This document shows positions 3,425 to 31,090 of a stretch of 64,000 nucleotides of DNA, one piece after another. The notes under the pieces are model-generated. The model searched no databases, was not told the DNA's origin, and saw only the letters and a program-made list of their open reading frames with translations. This DNA is from a virus, in IMG/VR virus record IMGVR_UViG_3300016471_001035, positions 1-64,000 of that record, one strand, 5' to 3'. Numbering within the stretch: position 1 is the stretch's first letter; each line of letters starts with the position of its first letter. The translations under genes and the position numbers were made by a program.

Positions 3425-3643
3425 GCAAAAGTCGAACAACTACATAACCAATACCTACAATTTGAAAAAGCTATTAGTAAGGTTAGCTATAATAAGCTTA
3501 CAGAATTGTTGGATGTTAATGAAAGTAATTTAGATAGTTTTGATAAAGTGTATGGGGATAAGGTTTGTGAATTGTTAGAAGTGTATGCTACTATCAAATC
3601 TATAATTAAGGAACGCAATAAGCTTGCCAAACTAGTTGACTAA
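3413..3643 (+). CDS. hypothetical early protein
   Basis: Leaderless after TTGTTT-N16-TATAAT; ends ..LVD* over the next -35 box. Confidence 0.65.
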   Translation: MLNKAKVEQLHNQYLQFEKAISKVSYNKLTELLDVNESNLDSFDKVYGDKVCELLEVYATIKSIIKERNKLAKLVD

Positions 3644-3663
3644 ATTTTAATTTCAGCCATAAT
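3636..3663 (+). promoter_or_regulatory. sigma70-type early promoter overlapping upstream stop
   Basis: TTGACT-N16-CATAAT-N6-ATG(3670). Confidence 0.8.
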
Positions 3664-3669
3664 ATAAAA

Positions 3670-4011
3670 ATGAAAACAAGTTGTAAAGTGTGTAATAATA
3701 AAGTGGTAGGGGCTAAAATTAGAGAGCTCTTTAAAGAGGGTTGTATAAAGAATGGTGCTACAGTTGAAGATGCCTATTATGCTAATATGCATAATTGTAG
3801 CAGATATAATAATAAGCTAGTAGATGGTTATAAGATTGTCTATAAAAGTTTAAATTATGGAGCATTCAAAATGTTTAAAAATGATCGCATTAATGTGCAA
3901 AAGGTATGGAAGTATGTATTAGAGCATATTAATAAGATTGATAGTGGGTGGGTGTATAGGGAGTATAGTGGAGAGCATTATGGGATTAGTAAGGAGTTTA
4001 GGGTTGACTAA
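3670..4011 (+). CDS. hypothetical early protein (N-terminal CxxC)
   Basis: ORF with its own promoter. Confidence 0.65.
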   Translation: MKTSCKVCNNKVVGAKIRELFKEGCIKNGATVEDAYYANMHNCSRYNNKLVDGYKIVYKSLNYGAFKMFKNDRINVQKVWKYVLEHINKIDSGWVYREYSGEHYGISKEFRVD

Positions 4012-4031
4012 ATCCAAACTTCCAATATAAT
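4004..4031 (+). promoter_or_regulatory. sigma70-type early promoter
   Basis: TTGACT-N16-TATAAT-N6-ATG(4038). Confidence 0.8.
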
Positions 4032-4037
4032 AGGAGT

Positions 4038-4328
4038 ATGATGAAAAGCAAAATTGAAAAAGTAGTTAGGGAGTTGAAAGCTGATTGTGAAACTGAATTT
4101 GAGGATAGTAATTATGAGGATGTAGTAACAGACTTATACCCCTATTTGAAGAGGATTAATGAGATTAGTGGGTTAAATGATAATAAGAAGCAAGATAAGA
4201 TTTATGAGGAGTTGAAGGATTTTTGTGGTGAAGCCTATTTCCATGTTGCTGAATGTATGTGGGCAGATTTTAATGATAGTTATATTGAAAAGACTGTTAA
4301 TAAGATTGAAGAGATTTTGGTTGACTAA
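4038..4328 (+). CDS. acidic hypothetical early protein
   Basis: D/E-rich ORF with its own promoter. Confidence 0.65.
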   Translation: MMKSKIEKVVRELKADCETEFEDSNYEDVVTDLYPYLKRINEISGLNDNKKQDKIYEELKDFCGEAYFHVAECMWADFNDSYIEKTVNKIEEILVD

Positions 4329-4348
4329 ATCTAAAATTCAGCCATAAT
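4321..4348 (+). promoter_or_regulatory. sigma70-type early promoter
   Basis: TTGACT-N16-CATAAT-N7-ATG(4356). Confidence 0.8.
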
Positions 4349-4355
4349 AGGAGGT

Positions 4356-4565
4356 ATGATGAAACTAGAAAGAAAGAAACAAATTAGTGAGCTTATTGAA
4401 GAGACATTCAATAATGTCACCAAACTAAATGACCTACTCAAGAAATCAGATTATGTGTGGGCCAGAAAGAATAGTGAATCTGAAAATGATGATGATTATG
4501 AATTGGCTGAATCCATTCTTGGGGTGGGAGAGAATCTTAAAGATTGGGGGAAGATGTTTGAATGA
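4356..4565 (+). CDS. acidic hypothetical early protein
   Basis: ORF with its own promoter. Confidence 0.6.
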   Translation: MMKLERKKQISELIEETFNNVTKLNDLLKKSDYVWARKNSESENDDDYELAESILGVGENLKDWGKMFE

Positions 4566-4765
4566 AAACAAAAAATAAGAAAAAGACATTTGAAGTTGAT
4601 ATTGCAGTCACTCTCTTTATCACAAAAGAAGTAGAAGCAGAAGATGAAGATGAAGCTCAATCTATTGCAGAGCATTCCATCAAGACAGGAACTGTTATGG
4701 ATGCTTGGCAGAGTGGAGATTGTGAGATTGAAAGTCAAGGATGTACTGAAGTGGAGGTAGAGTGA
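4562..4765 (+). CDS. acidic hypothetical protein (VEAEDEDEA motif)
   Basis: ATGA overlap with upstream gene; motif common in small phage proteins. Confidence 0.6.
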   Translation: MKTKNKKKTFEVDIAVTLFITKEVEAEDEDEAQSIAEHSIKTGTVMDAWQSGDCEIESQGCTEVEVE

Positions 4766-4980
4766 ATACATTCAAACCATACAATCAAACTAATGTGGTA
4801 GACTTCTATAAGGAGTTGGTGAAGAGGTGGGCAGATGATCAGTTAGATCAACTTCATGAATACCCCATCACTAATAGGAAAGAGGCATTAGAAAGGCTTC
4901 TAGATAGTTCTCTTGATGTGTTTAGGGATGATATTACTGAAGAGATCAGAAAAAGAAATTTATCTTTTTTGGTTGACTAA
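4762..4980 (+). CDS. hypothetical early protein
   Basis: GTGA overlap; ends ..LVD* over the next -35 box. Confidence 0.6.
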   Translation: MNTFKPYNQTNVVDFYKELVKRWADDQLDQLHEYPITNRKEALERLLDSSLDVFRDDITEEIRKRNLSFLVD

Positions 4981-5000
4981 AATCCCAATTCAGATATAAT
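4973..5000 (+). promoter_or_regulatory. sigma70-type early promoter
   Basis: TTGACT-N16-TATAAT-N6-ATG(5007). Confidence 0.8.
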
Positions 5001-5006
5001 AGGTGT

Positions 5007-5312
5007 ATGATGAAAAACAAACAACAGTATCTATCAATTGACTTGTATAATGGCAAAAGCAAGTGGATCTCTCAAAAAGACTTCCTTGCATTTACTATTG
5101 GAGATGAATATGATGGTAAAGATAGTAAAGGGTACTATTATGAGTATAAGACTGATGTGGGGAAAACTGAAAAAGAGTACTATAATTGGAGGGACAATTT
5201 TGAAGACATTCAAAAGACTCCTACCCATACCATCTATAAAACTGAAGAGTGTATGTTAATTGACTTCACCAATCATGACTTTAAGGGTAGTTGGTTAAAG
5301 GAGAACAAATGA
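5007..5312 (+). CDS. hypothetical early protein
   Basis: ORF with its own promoter. Confidence 0.65.
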   Translation: MMKNKQQYLSIDLYNGKSKWISQKDFLAFTIGDEYDGKDSKGYYYEYKTDVGKTEKEYYNWRDNFEDIQKTPTHTIYKTEECMLIDFTNHDFKGSWLKENK

Positions 5313-5470
5313 AAATCAATAAAGAACAAAAAGAGAAAGTACTAGAAGTACTAGAACAATTAGCTGAAGATGCAGGTTATGAGAGTTATGAGAGTGGTGG
5401 TATGGAGAATATTGATAATGTAAATCCATACTACAAGAAGATTTGTAGGGTTCTTAAACTCAACTCCTAA
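5309..5470 (+). CDS. small acidic protein (53 aa, not in ORF track)
   Basis: ATGA overlap; MKINKEQKEKVLEVLEQLAEDAGYESYESGG... Confidence 0.55.
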   Translation: MKINKEQKEKVLEVLEQLAEDAGYESYESGGMENIDNVNPYYKKICRVLKLNS

Positions 5471-5483
5471 CCCATCATAATGG

Positions 5484-5521
5484 AAAAGGCTTATTGTAAA
5501 AGATAAGTCTTTTCTGTTTTT
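5484..5521 (+). terminator. putative intrinsic terminator
   Basis: AAAAGGCTTAT-loop-ATAAGTCTTTT followed by CTGTTTTT. Confidence 0.5.
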
Positions 5522-5533
5522 ATATAGAAAAAT

Positions 5534-5670
5534 GTTCAGTCCAGTCCTCCCCCCTCCTGCCGTAACTTAAGGTGGTAGGTATATTGTATAGGGATTTAGG
5601 TTTTGGTCAATAACAAAATAGTATTTGACTTAAACCAAAATTCTACTATAATAGTTGTATGTTAAATAAA
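5534..5670. repeat. Divergent-promoter element, copy 2
   Basis: See copy 1; minus-strand TTGACC-N16-TACAAT (5610-5583) and plus-strand TTGACT-N16-TATAAT (5625-5652). Confidence 0.85.
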
Positions 5671-5847
5671 AACGAATTTGATAGTTTTGAGGAAATTGAA
5701 AAGTTTATTTATGAAATTGGGGATAGAGATTTAGAGATATATTTTGATAATTTGAAGGAAAGTTATGGGGTTAGTGAATGGGGGGAGGAAAGGATTATAG
5801 AGGAGTTTAGTAAGTATGTGGTTAAAAGTGGGATTTATTTTGTTTGA
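5659..5847 (+). CDS. acidic hypothetical early protein
   Basis: Leaderless; starts MLNK like 3413. Confidence 0.6.
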   Translation: MLNKNEFDSFEEIEKFIYEIGDRDLEIYFDNLKESYGVSEWGEERIIEEFSKYVVKSGIYFV

Positions 5848-5877
5848 ATAAAAAGTAATTTCCAATATAATATAAAA

Positions 5878-6129
5878 ATGATGAATAAAGAAGTTAAAAA
5901 TATATATGGTGGTGAATTGGTAAGTGAAAAGGATGTAATTTGGGATGATGATAAGGAGGTGTTTATTTGTAAGAAAGAATTGGAGGAGGGTAAGTATTAT
6001 GGTTATTATTGTGATGTAAGTAATGAGGGGTTTGTATTTTGGAAGAAAGATGGGAAGGTAGATTATGATGTAGGAGATGTGGATGAATATGGTGATTGGA
6101 TTTTAGTAGAGAAAGGAATTGTTAAATGA
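5878..6129 (+). CDS. acidic hypothetical early protein
   Basis: TTGAAT-N16-TATAAT (5844-5871) upstream. Confidence 0.6.
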   Translation: MMNKEVKNIYGGELVSEKDVIWDDDKEVFICKKELEEGKYYGYYCDVSNEGFVFWKKDGKVDYDVGDVDEYGDWILVEKGIVK

Positions 6130-6398
6130 ATAAAGGATTGAAAGTTAATAGAGGAGAGGATATGGATAGTTTGTATGAAAGTATGGAATATGATTTTGAG
6201 AATGGAGCGGGTATTATTGATAGTTTGAAGCGTATTAATAAAGTTCCGAAAAAGGATTGGGTAAAAGTATTAGAAGGGTTTAAGGAGTGGGAGTTAAGGG
6301 AGTTGGGAGAGAATAGTGAATGGGATAAAGATGAAATGGATAAAGAGAGTGTTGAGTTTATAGAGAAGAATAAGATTAAATGGAATTGGATGTATTGA
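6126..6398 (+). CDS. acidic hypothetical early protein
   Basis: ORF track; E/D/K/W-rich. Confidence 0.55.
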   Translation: MNKGLKVNRGEDMDSLYESMEYDFENGAGIIDSLKRINKVPKKDWVKVLEGFKEWELRELGENSEWDKDEMDKESVEFIEKNKIKWNWMY

Positions 6399-6440
6399 TT
6401 TTGGAGTTGACAAAAAAGTAAATTCCCGTATAATAGGAGT

Positions 6441-6656
6441 ATGATGAAGAAAATATATTTGAATATTGATTGGATGAGTAGGAGTGTTAGTGTTAGTGAT
6501 AAAGAGGGATTTGAGGATTGGAAAAAGTATTTGGTGGAAGAGAATAAATGTGGGGAGAATAAGGATGGGAATAGTTTGGAGATTTATAATGAGGATGATG
6601 AAGATGAGGGTGATAGTATGGTAGAGTTAGAGATTGAAGAGAAAGATTTGTATTGA
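6441..6656 (+). CDS. highly acidic early protein
   Basis: TTGACA-N16-TATAAT (6407-6434) upstream; EDDEDEGD tract. Confidence 0.65.
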   Translation: MMKKIYLNIDWMSRSVSVSDKEGFEDWKKYLVEENKCGENKDGNSLEIYNEDDEDEGDSMVELEIEEKDLY

Positions 6657-6686
6657 CCCAAATCTAAATTCCCCTATAATATGTGT

Positions 6687-6881
6687 ATGATAAATGATAC
6701 AGAGAAGAGTGAGAGGGAGTTGTTTATAGCTTATACAATTGAGAACATTATAAATGGGCTCAAATATATTGGCAATGAAGTGGATCCAGAGAATACCCCA
6801 GCCTGGAATAGTATTAGAAAGCAGTTAGAAACTATTGATAATCAGGTTGATAGGCTGGTAAACAGGACTAAATGGAAATGA
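6687..6881 (+). CDS. hypothetical early protein (start probably 6687)
   Basis: TTGACC-N16-TATAAT (6653-6680), then 6 nt to ATG 6687. Confidence 0.6.
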   Translation: MINDTEKSERELFIAYTIENIINGLKYIGNEVDPENTPAWNSIRKQLETIDNQVDRLVNRTKWK

Positions 6882-7105
6882 AGTTCTCTTATAAGAAGCT
6901 GATTGATGAGCATACAAAAGCTCTCAAGTTAAGATGGGGGGATGATTGCCTCTCTAAAGGAAGTAAGACTGCTATCAATTATGGATGGGGGCAGACAGAT
7001 AACTCTATCTGCTCTAAAATTTATTTGGAGAGTGGGCATCAAGTTTTAGATACTTGGTTTGATGAAGAGGATATGATTTACAGGTCAGCACAATCAGATT
7101 ATTGA
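6872..7105 (+). CDS. hypothetical early protein
   Basis: ORF track; overlaps the upstream stop. Confidence 0.55.
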   Translation: MEMKFSYKKLIDEHTKALKLRWGDDCLSKGSKTAINYGWGQTDNSICSKIYLESGHQVLDTWFDEEDMIYRSAQSDY

Positions 7106-7140
7106 GTTGACTAAACTTAAAGTTCTTTCATAATAATAGC

Positions 7141-7278
7141 AGTTCCTTCCGCAGTACGGGTTTGACTAGCCCAATTGATGTACTGAAGCCCCAACGCCCA
7201 GAGTCTGAGGCGGGTAAAGGTGGGTATATTGTCCTAACTACTGTCGACGTTACTAGAGTAGGGGAGTCGGAAGGAGCT
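7141..7278 (+). ncRNA. putative structured non-coding RNA (~138 nt), family not recognised
   Basis: Promoter TTGACT-N16-CATAAT (7107-7134) with no ATG at +1; 5' AGTTCCTTCCG pairs with 3' CGGAAGGAGCT; internal stems; U-tract follows. Confidence 0.7.
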
Positions 7279-7322
7279 ACTTTTTTAGTTGACGCAAACA
7301 GAAGTTCAGCCATAATAGTAGT

Positions 7323-7493
7323 ATGATGAAATTCGAAACACAAAGACAGATTGAATATTGGTTGGAAGAAATGAATAACGGACATTTCGATAATATGTAT
7401 GAGAATTGTTGTGATATGTATGATAGTGAGGTGTTGATTGTTGATGAGTTTAATAATCAAATCAATTTCTTCTTGAGTGAGGCTTGTCCATAA
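7323..7493 (+). CDS. small acidic early protein (56 aa, not in ORF track)
   Basis: TTGACG-N16-CATAAT-N6-ATG; MMKFETQRQIEYWLEEM... Confidence 0.6.
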   Translation: MMKFETQRQIEYWLEEMNNGHFDNMYENCCDMYDSEVLIVDEFNNQINFFLSEACP

Positions 7494-7533
7494 TTTGGCT
7501 TGACCCAAACCTACATTCAGCCATAATAGTAGT

Positions 7534-7701
7534 ATGATGACAATGACGATCAGAGAAGCGGTGAAGAAGTATAAGAAGAAGGATACGTGCAGGTACTTCT
7601 TGAAATGTACCAATAAAGCCACCACCACCATCCCCAGTCCTATTCTGGGTGAGGTGCCTGCTTGTAAGAGCTGTTCAGACTTCTATAAGAGACAATCATG
7701 A
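7534..7701 (+). CDS. small Cys-rich early protein (55 aa, not in ORF track)
   Basis: TTGACC-N16-CATAAT-N6-ATG; C-x5-C...CxxC, possible Zn finger. Confidence 0.6.
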   Translation: MMTMTIREAVKKYKKKDTCRYFLKCTNKATTTIPSPILGEVPACKSCSDFYKRQS

Positions 7702-7925
7702 CATACAGAGTTACTTGGTATTCAATGTGGGCCAGACCTCAGATATATGATGGGCTCACCAAGCAAGAAGCAGATACTTTAGTCTGGCAGGGTAGGGAGA
7801 GTCAGTATAAAGTAAAGGTAGAAGAGTTTGAGATAGATGGTGATAATCGAACTACACTCGAATAACGCCCCCCGAGCTTAAACTTTATAGTTGACCAACC
7901 CCCAAGAAGCACCTACAATAGTAGT

Positions 7926-8246
7926 ATGATGAATAAAGAAGTTACTTACGAGATCTACGATACAATGATTGGTGATTGGCGCAAAGTCTCCGAGCCTGCT
8001 ATCGGAGGTATTAAGTGGGAGAAGCGTGAGCAGATCGGGGATGAGGTCCAATCTGCCTATTACGATAACTCCTTCTACAAGGTACCCTTCTATGGCCCTT
8101 ACGATCAGGGTCGTATCCATCGTGCTCTCAACAATTTATATCCCGCACGATTCAATAAGTTCGGTGGTTATACTACCGTTTCAAGCGTAGAGCAGCTTGA
8201 TGATCAACACATTAAGGTAGAGCTCTGCTACCATATCGGAGACTAA
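7926..8246 (+). CDS. hypothetical early protein
   Basis: TTGACC-N17-TACAAT-N6-ATG. Confidence 0.65.
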   Translation: MMNKEVTYEIYDTMIGDWRKVSEPAIGGIKWEKREQIGDEVQSAYYDNSFYKVPFYGPYDQGRIHRALNNLYPARFNKFGGYTTVSSVEQLDDQHIKVELCYHIGD

Positions 8247-9373: not shown

Positions 9374-9561
9374 GTAACCAGGACGAACTTCGTGACATCT
9401 TCGCCGCTCTAGCCATGCACGCTTTAATCAACCAAGAGGCAGCTACCCCTAAGTGGGTGGCCCATCAAGCATACAAGTATGCAGACGCCATGTTAATTGA
9501 ACGGATGTCTACCCTTGAAGAATATGACCAAGTCAGCCATAATAAGGAGAGTAAGAAATGA
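9370..9561 (+). CDS. small phage protein, LRD.FAA.AM...AY.YADAML..R family
   Basis: Recognisable widespread phage motif. Confidence 0.7.
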   Translation: MSNQDELRDIFAALAMHALINQEAATPKWVAHQAYKYADAMLIERMSTLEEYDQVSHNKESKK

Positions 9562-10244
9562 GTACTAACATTACCGGAGAGGTGACTCAAAAGCTTGTCG
9601 AGGCATTTGAGTTCTTTAATAAAGAGCTCGACACTAACCTGGATACGCCTGTCTTCACGCTCATCCCCAATCGTGGTCGTCAGAGTTATTATGGATGGTA
9701 TTGGGCGGGACGCTGGAAGGATGGTAAGAAGACGTTACCCGAGATTAATATTACCGCTGATACTCTCAAGCGATCTGTTGAAGACGTCTGTGAGACTCTC
9801 ATCCATGAGATGGCCCATTATAAGAACTCGGTTGAAGAGATCGTTGATTGTAATGTCAATCAGTATCATAACAAGGCATTCAAGAAGAGGGCTGAGGCTT
9901 TTGGTCTTAAAGTCGAACGCATGAAGAACAAAGGCTATGCGAAGACTTCTCTTGATGAGAAGGGTAACAACCTGGTCAAGAAGTATAAGAATAAGTTCTG
10001 TAAAGACGATAAGAATCCGTTTCATGTCTATCGGGTAAGTGAAGAGCGCATCAGTACAGTTAAGTCGAACAAGCGCTTCATTGCTGTAGACAAGAACCTA
10101 GCCGAAGAGGTAGAGCAATTGTATGGTGATCAGTCATTGAGGGCTACTGTTGAGAACTTAATGAGGTCAGCCATCAGTGAGCATCACATCTATGAGTCCA
10201 AGGCTAGTGGCAGTAGGTACTCGGAGTTGGAGCAAATGGCATGA
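9558..10244 (+). CDS. SprT-like zinc metalloprotease
   Basis: ETLIHEMAH zincin motif, YHNKAFKKRA second His, upstream EINI strand. Confidence 0.8.
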   Translation: MSTNITGEVTQKLVEAFEFFNKELDTNLDTPVFTLIPNRGRQSYYGWYWAGRWKDGKKTLPEINITADTLKRSVEDVCETLIHEMAHYKNSVEEIVDCNVNQYHNKAFKKRAEAFGLKVERMKNKGYAKTSLDEKGNNLVKKYKNKFCKDDKNPFHVYRVSEERISTVKSNKRFIAVDKNLAEEVEQLYGDQSLRATVENLMRSAISEHHIYESKASGSRYSELEQMA

Positions 10245-10444: not shown

Positions 10445-10744
10445 ATGACACAAACAATTAACGGTATTGAGTATAAAGTAATCCCCACGGAGTTTAACAA
10501 GAAGGGCTTTCACTACAAGCAAGTCCGTAGAGATGGAATGAAGGCTATCTTTGAGCAGACCCGTAATGGTACCGAGCTAAAGAACTATGAGGTGGTAAAG
10601 CTAGGCAGACATAATGGGTATGTGATGGGTGGTGTGAAGATAGAGCCAGCCGAGACCTATCCAGGTAGTTCATTGTGGGGCATTACGGGATGGACTTGTC
10701 AGAGTATTGATAGAGCTCTCAATCGATACAATCAATTAGACTAA
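10445..10744 (+). CDS. hypothetical phage protein
   Basis: YEVV...E.YPGSS.WG..GWT motif seen in conserved phage hypotheticals. Confidence 0.6.
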   Translation: MTQTINGIEYKVIPTEFNKKGFHYKQVRRDGMKAIFEQTRNGTELKNYEVVKLGRHNGYVMGGVKIEPAETYPGSSLWGITGWTCQSIDRALNRYNQLD

Positions 10745-10751
10745 TCCGATT

Positions 10752-10824
10752 GGGCGTATAGCTCAGCGGTCAGAGCAGGAAACTCATAATTTCTTGGTCC
10801 TAGGTTCAAATCCTAGTACGCCCA
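10752..10824 (+). tRNA. tRNA-Ile2 (CAT, lysidine type); Met not excluded; no encoded CCA
   Basis: Cloverleaf GGGCGTA/TACGCCC, D-arm GCTCAGCGGTCAGAGC, anticodon loop CTCATAA, T-loop TTCAAAT; AGCAGG..ACTCATAAT..CTTGGTC core resembles bacterial tRNA-Ile2. Confidence 0.9.
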
Positions 10825-10850
10825 AGCCCTTTCATATACAATAGATCATA

Positions 10851-30892: not shown

Positions 30893-31090
30893 ATGACGAA
30901 CTCTTTGTCGTCAGCAGATATTGTTTTAAGAAATTCATCTTTATACAGAGATTTCTTAAAAGAGCGTGATGAGATTTTGAGGCATAAATGGTTTATGTCT
31001 GAAAAAGAAGGAAGAGATGTAGGTTTTGAGAGAGCATTGATAGATTGGAACATACACCACAGAACGAAGTGGCGAGGCTATGGTTTTTAA
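30893..31090 (+). CDS. DUF4032-like small protein
   Basis: SSLYRDFLKERDEILRHKWFMSEKEGRDVGFERALIDW. Confidence 0.7.
   Translation: MTNSLSSADIVLRNSSLYRDFLKERDEILRHKWFMSEKEGRDVGFERALIDWNIHHRTKWRGYGF

Follow-up and report, generated by a model that had tools for sequence, protein, structure and literature searches.

The 64,000-nucleotide (nt) stretch of viral DNA analysed here, called the window throughout, is the first 64 kilobases (kb) of the IMG/VR virus record IMGVR_UViG_3300016471_001035 (positions 1 to 64,000), a record of 139.6 kb that is about 66% complete. Positions 7141–7280 on its + strand, as delimited by a match to the covariance model R1 described below, make up a putative stand-alone gene for a structured non-coding RNA (ncRNA) of about 140 nt, an assignment of which we are very nearly certain and whose product we refer to as the four-arm RNA. 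The gene is preceded by a sigma70-type promoter at 7107–7134 (+), with the −35 box TTGACT at 7107–7112, a 16-nt spacer and the −10 box CATAAT at 7129–7134; it had been pointed out in a sequence-only reading of this DNA, and the promoter scan agrees. With 52% G+C against 37% for 6001–8000, the RNA is indeed the GC-rich element in an AT-rich island that the same reading had described. Its end is followed by AC and a tract of six U (ACTTTTTT, 7279–7286, +), by its sequence a candidate termination signal, and, as had also been noticed, by the −35 box of the next cassette (TTGACG, from 7289), the next gene's own promoter lying 8 nt after the U tract.

The two ends of the RNA are complementary to each other, since AGTTCCTTCCG (7141–7151) can pair with CGGAAGGAGCT (7268–7278) over 11 base pairs (bp), one of them U-G, to give the closing helix P1. 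The 5′ strand of P1 (AGUUCCUUCCG) begins at the inferred +1 position A7141, and its 3′ strand (CGGAAGGAGCU, 7268–7278) stands just before the AC and U tract. Arm P2 (7152–7185) consists of a lower helix, CAGUAC (7152–7157) with GUACUG (7180–7185), an upper hairpin P2b, GGGUU-UGACU-AGCCC (7158–7172), with the conserved loop UGACU at 7163–7167, and a 3′ bulge, AAUUGAU (7173–7179). A junction strand together with the P3 5′ strand (AAG-CCCC-AA, 7186–7194), both part of a near-invariant core, leads into the P3 hairpin CGCC-CAG-AGU-CUG-A-GGCG (7195–7212; loop region AGAGUCU, 7200–7206), and the following segment (7213–7230) holds the internal-loop strand GGUAAAG, the P3 3′ strand G-U-GGG (7220–7224) and the junction strand UAUAUU (7225–7230). 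Arm P4 (7231–7267) is formed by UCCU/GGGA and CUACU/AGUAG around a 14-nt loop that contains two palindromes, GUCGAC (7243–7248) and CUAG (7253–7256). All of these elements are on the + strand, and the end-to-end pairing and each of the inner arms that the sequence-only reading had drawn (CAGTAC/GTACTG, GGGTT-TGACT-AGCCC, CGCC-CAG..CTG-A-GGCG, and CTAC/GTAG with TCC/GGA) are found among them.

From these parts, the predicted fold is a four-way junction of P1, P2/P2b, P3 and P4. P1 closes the fold by pairing the 5′ and 3′ ends and is 11–12 bp long in the family. No unpaired base separates P1 from P2 or P4 from P1, except that group A, the type found in the window and defined below, has G7266-U7267 between P4 and P1; the remaining linkers are GAA(G), joining P2 to P3, and an A/U-rich heptamer, joining P3 to P4. 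When folded as a single sequence, the window RNA reaches −49.2 kcal/mol (z = −1.62, with 17 of 200 shuffles as stable) and the opposite strand gives z = −0.70; both values are within chance and were therefore not used as evidence, and the structure is taken as real because of covariation in the homologs, not because of fold energy.

The homologs were collected by pattern scans of IMG/VR and of JGI/ENA metagenomes, which gave a family of about 65 loci, representing about 50 distinct sequences, the members being 131–155 nt long. A scan of the metagenomes with a 19-mer from the core returned 45 loci, of which 43 were true and two were GC-rich chance matches, and later IMG/VR scans in which other parts were left free added 17, 2 and 3 loci; a first IMG/VR scan with a 15-mer was discarded, 33 of its 34 loci being chance matches. 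Three groups can be distinguished: group A, the window type, of 139–140 nt in early-promoter cassettes; group B, of about 131–134 nt; and group C, of about 155 nt with an additional hairpin in P2. A UGCC...GGCA variant of the P3 hairpin is also present among the IMG/VR members. The covariance model R1 was built from a hand-written structure on 14 group-B sequences (members from tRNA arrays) with no group-A sequence included; it matches the window RNA at 7141–7280 with 91.2 bits (E = 1e-24) and recovers every true locus. The MAFFT alignment A3 was off in P4 and the P1 3′ strand, and the partly wrong structure that RNAalifold gave on it was replaced by the hand structure with realignment to the covariance model.

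The covariation test that the sequence-only reading had proposed gave a clear result. In the model-made alignments, standard pairs occupy 95–96% of the cells, a value that falls to 38–53% when the strands are slid by 1–3 columns. Both sides have changed in 19 of the 42 pairs, which none of 500 shuffles reaches, and the double-change cells number 150 where 48 are expected. All four helices drawn earlier covary across the roughly 50 distinct homologs, with both-side changes in 5–6 of the 11 pairs of P1, in 3 pairs of P2, in 4 of the 5 pairs of P2b and in 6 of the 8 modelled pairs of P4, and with a basal pair of the P3 hairpin that is C-G in 20 sequences and U-A in 13. In one locus (L203), which came from a scan whose pattern put no constraint on P1, even the otherwise conserved part of P1 has been rewritten by compensatory changes. 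A diverged copy with 82% identity (L036) likewise carries compensatory differences, CAGUAC/GUACUG having become CAGUGC/GCACUG, and CUACU/AGUAG having become CUAUU/AAUAG. Many pairs are G-U and would turn into A-C mismatches on the opposite strand, which identifies the + strand RNA as the folded species. The inner four pairs of P3 (CCCC with G-GGG) vary in no member, so that this pairing is inferred only.

While the stems covary, the junction, the P3 arm and three loops keep their sequence. These conserved loops read UGACU in P2b and AGAGUCU in P3, and that of P4 is centred on CUAG. The P2b loop is UGACU in all members except those of group C (AGACU), and the P3 loop is invariant also where the search patterns left it unforced, as is the segment UA.A.G.GGG.AUAU across the family. 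The GACU of the P2b loop is complementary to the AGUC of the P3 loop over 4 bp, extended to 5 bp in group C (AGACU with AGUCU), and the two loops lie on neighbouring arms at a similar distance from the junction; such a loop–loop kiss could clamp the fold.

Comparison of close relatives indicates that the RNA is under purifying selection. In the 97.7-kb contig of one such relative (L034), whose early region is 72–88% identical to that of the window, the RNA shows two differences only, both unpaired and both within 7213–7230. Among 14 group-A loci the RNA is mostly 98–99% identical to the window RNA (138–139 of 140 positions), and the upstream open reading frame (ORF) is either 87–92% identical or replaced by an unrelated gene (Fisher p 1e-2 to 1e-22); the RNA therefore travels as its own cassette, more constrained than its neighbours. 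The cassette adjoining the RNA also differs among relatives. In one locus, at a contig end (L064), the sequence diverges abruptly within P4, possibly a chimeric assembly or a truncated copy, and in another (L066) the usual next promoter is absent after the RNA.

In addition to the fold, the promoter is a constant feature of the family. All 36 distinct upstream regions of the homologs contain a sigma70-type promoter, with a spacer of 16 nt in 32 of them and 17 nt in four. The −35 box may be TTGACA, TTGACT, TTGACG, TTGCAC, TTGCAA, TTGCCA or TTTACA, and the −10 hexamer varies too, but its end always stands exactly 6 nt before A1, the A of AGUUC. As the position of the promoters is fixed although their sequences vary, A1 (7141) is taken as the transcription start. 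The covariation and this promoter geometry bear out, so far as sequence comparison can, the earlier proposal of a discrete ncRNA gene with its own early-type promoter. At the other end, 20 of the 30 distinct homolog tails contain a run of at least four U in the first 12 nt beyond P1, and for the window RNA the long-range P1 helix followed by U6 is the only terminator candidate. The 3′ end may thus be set by P1-dependent termination, by an RNase P cut of the next tRNA, or by trimming to P1.

The RNA does not belong to a catalogued family, in line with the sequence-only reading, which had not recognised one and had proposed a scan of Rfam. With Rfam 15 at gathering thresholds (cmscan), the window and 20 homolog loci gave only tRNA matches elsewhere, and a search of the RNA itself at E ≤ 10 gave nothing above chance level (csRNA, 20 bits where the threshold is 57; archaeal C/D small RNAs, 8–11 bits). 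The suggestion of a tRNA-like or Y-like RNA was not borne out. ARAGORN and RF00005 found no tRNA at the RNA site, P1 is 11–12 bp long and there is no T loop; the four-arm topology is like that of tRNA, but the complementary loops of the four-arm RNA are on neighbouring arms. No Rfam model of a Y RNA or YrlA matched, nor did the Rfam 15 models of 6S RNA, the known riboswitches, GOLLD or ROOL. No complementarity beyond chance was found in the 139.6-kb record, so an antisense RNA to the phage's own genes was rejected, as were readings by eye as a K-turn, C/D box, Shine-Dalgarno mimic or CsrA site, the motifs of which are not kept across the groups. A coding gene was also rejected, since the frames are not kept between the groups and the length differences are not multiples of three. 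The earlier claim that the + strand holds no ORF stands in part: a mechanically called TTG-start ORF of 54 amino acids (aa) does exist at 7162–7326, but its frame is lost in the homologs, and the same holds for a minus-strand ORF called mechanically at 7128–7631, which overlaps the RNA.

Outside the metagenomic collections the family was not encountered. Distant blastn and megablast searches of 50,697 cultured phage records gave no match to the RNA region, the invariant 31-nt core being long enough to be reported if present. Two core patterns, taken as identical or complementary, had no matches in 185,579 prokaryotic species genomes, prophages included, and therefore offer no host clue. Searches of the available literature found no description of the four-arm RNA family. 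It is an uncatalogued, new family among the orphan structured RNAs of phage tRNA and early islands.

The window phage is, judging by its genes, an uncultured far-T4-like myovirus, since its genome carries gp23-type capsid, portal, ribonucleotide reductase and tail-fibre genes and its capsid protein shares only about 32% identity with the capsid proteins of T4-like cyanophages in culture. The pattern TTGAC-N16-19-CATAATA occurs five times in the window where 0.08 occurrences are expected, and cassettes with such promoters run along 3636–7528 and beyond; around the RNA, the consensus scan called further promoters at 6653, 7289 and 7500. In the other early cassettes the A of an ATG stands at the expected transcription start, so that their early mRNAs are by implication leaderless.

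In groups B and C, dense arrays of tRNA genes enclose the RNA, as in L057 and L049, and in some loci the next tRNA lies 5–9 nt past the RNA end. Four large group-B carrier contigs contain no gp23-type capsid gene, the window's genome serving as the positive control, and these carriers are therefore assigned to another phage lineage. In one 1,077-bp metagenome contig (L048), a group-B-type RNA lies between promoters of the far-T4 cassette type, TTGACA-N16-CATAAT upstream and TTGACC...CATAAT-ATG downstream, and this mixed, recombinant-looking layout points to exchange of the RNA between lineages. The RNA gene moves as a unit between unrelated phages.

Genes for ArdC-like anti-restriction, DUF932 and GP88 proteins are found near the group-B and group-C RNAs. 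An ArdC-like protein (ArdcN and MPTase-PolyVal, 279 aa) and a GP88-family protein (211 aa) are encoded 0.4–2.4 kb downstream on the same strand, an arrangement seen in L049 (5218–6805), L053 (2407–3993), L057 and L069. Directly upstream of the RNA in these two groups stands a conserved 86-aa ORF without a family, which was rejected as a partner of the RNA as it has no homolog in the window's genome. Small ORFs converging on the RNA 3′ end in 24 group-B and group-C loci are 60–65% identical to a 65-aa ORF of the window (30893–31090, +) that matches the C-terminal part of DUF4032 (E = 4e-6) and represents a widely shared small phage protein. The sole tRNA of the window, a tRNA-Met found by ARAGORN and RF00005, lies at 10751–10825, 3.5 kb downstream of the RNA. 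Upstream of it, a 99-aa ORF with no Pfam family (10445–10744, +) has homologs with up to 46% identity over 74 aa within the tRNA arrays of 15 group-B and group-C loci, and may be part of an old tRNA-island module common to both lineages. Between the early cassettes and the tRNA is the gene for a 228-aa protein with a SprT-like zinc metallopeptidase domain (9558–10244, +; PF10263, E = 2e-6; phrog_6361); the zincin near the RNA in group-B loci is a different one, the ArdC-like protein.

In the mechanism that we propose, the host sigma70 RNA polymerase would start at A7141 upon entry of the DNA into the cell, and the transcript would end at, or be trimmed back to, P1 and the U tract. The P2 and P3 arms would be clamped by the loop–loop kiss of 4–5 bp, GACU with AGUC, and the self-complementary P4 loop may join two copies. 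The folded RNA would act in trans through its shape, by neither antisense pairing nor cis regulation, and would serve, in host take-over or counter-defence, as a decoy, sponge or scaffold that binds a conserved partner from the host or the phage. A stand-alone small structured RNA gene with a proposed action in trans through shape is the overall explanation that we favour, with moderate confidence, and we hold the action in trans through the fold itself to be somewhat more probable than its opposite; a role as a decoy or in counter-defence or host take-over is a tentative suggestion.

Several observations weigh against this explanation or parts of it. Sixteen relatives with 70–83% capsid identity, two of which are complete genomes (217 and 230 kb), do not contain the RNA in a search that recovered, as its positive control, the single copy in the window's own record; the RNA is therefore dispensable. 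The neighbourhood comparison gave no specific protein partner, and the DUF4032-like protein was rejected as such because it is present also in far-T4 relatives that lack the RNA. The decoy or counter-defence role is argued from context only. The terminator scan of 6600–7800 found no canonical short-loop terminator, either at the RNA 3′ end or between the cassettes, and a few members have the next promoter directly after P1, without a U run. The invariance of GAAGCCCC is largely forced, because most search patterns contained it, and a scan that left it free showed that the G7188 position can be A. The loop–loop kiss and the inner P3 helix are both drawn on invariant bases and have no covariation support. 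Finally, the phage and its host are both uncultured, and the RNA is known here from sequence alone.

Since the P4 loop is palindromic, the assembly of several copies might itself be the functional form, the copies being joined by the P4 palindrome and perhaps by UGACU/AGUCU in trans, which would make the RNA a miniature counterpart of GOLLD and ROOL. At the centre of the P4 loop, nearly all members have the tetranucleotide CUAG, and the exceptions, CCGG in L052 and L182 and, with a wobble, CUGG in L073, are still self-complementary; the second palindrome of group A changes from GUCGAC to GUGCAC in L066 and L073. Adjacent palindrome bases are unable to pair within one chain, and the RNA occurs in phage tRNA arrays, as GOLLD does. 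Loop changes from palindrome to palindrome have served as an argument for intermolecular kissing loops in OLE and GOLLD (Kretsch et al. 2025, PMC12286853). However, only about three such changes are independent, each with about a one in five chance of keeping a palindrome, so that this evidence is suggestive and no more; the palindromes could be protein-binding sites instead, the RNA is only 130–155 nt long, and the GOLLD and ROOL models of Rfam do not match it. Self-assembly as the functional form is thus a possibility worth keeping in mind, but not one that we expect to be correct. Its combination with the preferred trans-acting reading, that is, a miniature self-assembling RNA made in the first minutes of infection that would capture a conserved host factor as an RNA-only counter-defence sponge, is decidedly unlikely; the captured factor may in that case be a defence sensor, an immune signalling nucleotide or a tRNA- or RNA-processing enzyme, and the family would, if this were true, be akin in kind to the GOLLD and ROOL cages but small and tractable.

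An action in trans could also be achieved by base-pairing, as in a small RNA of the Hfq or ProQ type with a conserved single-stranded seed against host mRNAs. The unit running from promoter to U tract, the A/U-rich single strand UAUAUAU beside a hairpin, the U-rich 3′ tail and the strongly conserved core would all suit such an RNA. Its most conserved bases, however, are in a closed, compact multi-helix fold rather than in an open seed, no target was found in the phage's own genome, and the two core patterns found nothing identical or complementary in the 185,579 species genomes, which together leave this explanation improbable.

Still less likely is a cis-acting leader, a riboswitch or attenuator in which a ligand-stabilised P1 with its U tract would terminate transcription before a downstream gene or tRNA. 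The U run directly after P1, the conserved junctions with variable stems, which resemble an aptamer, and the tRNA within 5–9 nt downstream in some members are what such a leader would show. The downstream neighbour is nevertheless not conserved, being by member a promoter with an ORF, a convergent ORF (in many group-B loci) or a tRNA 5–9 nt off; the next gene of the window has its own promoter 8 nt past the U tract, and no riboswitch model matches. As its downstream neighbour differs among members, the RNA is evidently not cis-acting.

A self-cleaving ribozyme or RNA-processing element, which the sequence-only reading had listed among its possibilities, is very unlikely. A four-way junction with conserved internal loops would be compatible with it, and short GUAUAUU and CAGAG / GUC stretches resemble hairpin-ribozyme loops, but the hairpin, hammerhead, twister, twister-sister, pistol, hatchet and HDV models of Rfam 15 gave no match at E ≤ 10. 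That there is no RNA gene at all, the locus being instead an ORF in decay, a fold arisen by chance or an element acting as DNA (an origin or a protein-binding site, for instance), can practically be dismissed, since the single-sequence z of only −1.62, the stop-free minus-strand stretches of 40–60 codons and the DNA palindromes stand against compensatory changes in four helices, G-U pairs that are A-C mismatches on the other strand, frames not kept between the groups, length differences that are not multiples of three and a conserved promoter aimed at base 1.

The four-arm RNA can be compared with several known phage systems. The RNAC and RNAD of T4 (species 1 and 2) are likewise small (119–139 nt), stable and non-coding, and lie among phage tRNA genes (PMC3014915), a location matched by the group-B and group-C members. 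R1 gave no match at E ≤ 1 over T4 69000–74000 (L087). RNAC ends in a tRNA-like T arm, whereas the four-arm family has none, and by annotation RNAC and RNAD abut tRNA-Arg, whereas in the four-arm family base 1 is the target of a dedicated sigma70 promoter. Both T4 RNAs are cut from a tRNA precursor. They are classed as late RNAs (PMC9697503), and according to a 2010 review no trans-acting T4 small RNA had been characterised and it was not known what RNAC and RNAD do (PMC3014915).

GOLLD (RF02032) and ROOL (RF03087) are also orphan structured RNAs of phages and prophages. ROOL, too, occurs in tRNA arrays, and both are hundreds of nucleotides long, several-fold larger than the four-arm RNA. They form 8- to 14-mer cages, whereas oligomerisation of the four-arm RNA is only proposed. 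The occurrence of GOLLD in tRNA arrays goes back to Morgado et al. 2020, as referenced in PMC12286853, and the switching of their self-complementary loops between palindromes was read there as a sign of kissing loops between molecules (PMC12286853), to which the roughly three changes in the four-arm RNA may correspond.

With respect to the T4-type PeSL (promoter-early cassettes), the window RNA is one unit of a series of early cassettes with one promoter per gene, but its cargo is an RNA gene rather than a small ORF, and the RNA is also found in the tRNA arrays of another lineage. The phi29 prohead RNA (pRNA) is likewise a phage RNA in which several helices meet at a junction and two 4-nt loops are complementary to each other. 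It is about 120–170 nt long, and its loops pair between copies to build a ring; the corresponding pairing in the four-arm RNA would be GACU with AGUC. The four-arm RNA differs in its early-type promoter and, because close relatives do without it, cannot be an essential part of packaging.

Taken together, the family stands out by being small, by folding into a four-way junction and by having a promoter of its own at a precise position. To our knowledge, functionally understood phage-encoded ncRNAs are very few, and the four-arm family is a good entry point, with its covariation-backed fold, its promoter-fixed 5′ end, its horizontal spread and its location in early or tRNA and anti-restriction islands. 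A size of about 130–155 nt suits probing, crystallography or cryo-electron microscopy, pull-downs and ligand screens, and the model R1 (alignment A8) could be proposed for Rfam. The family could also help to explain the orphan structured RNAs that are kept beside tRNA genes in large phages.

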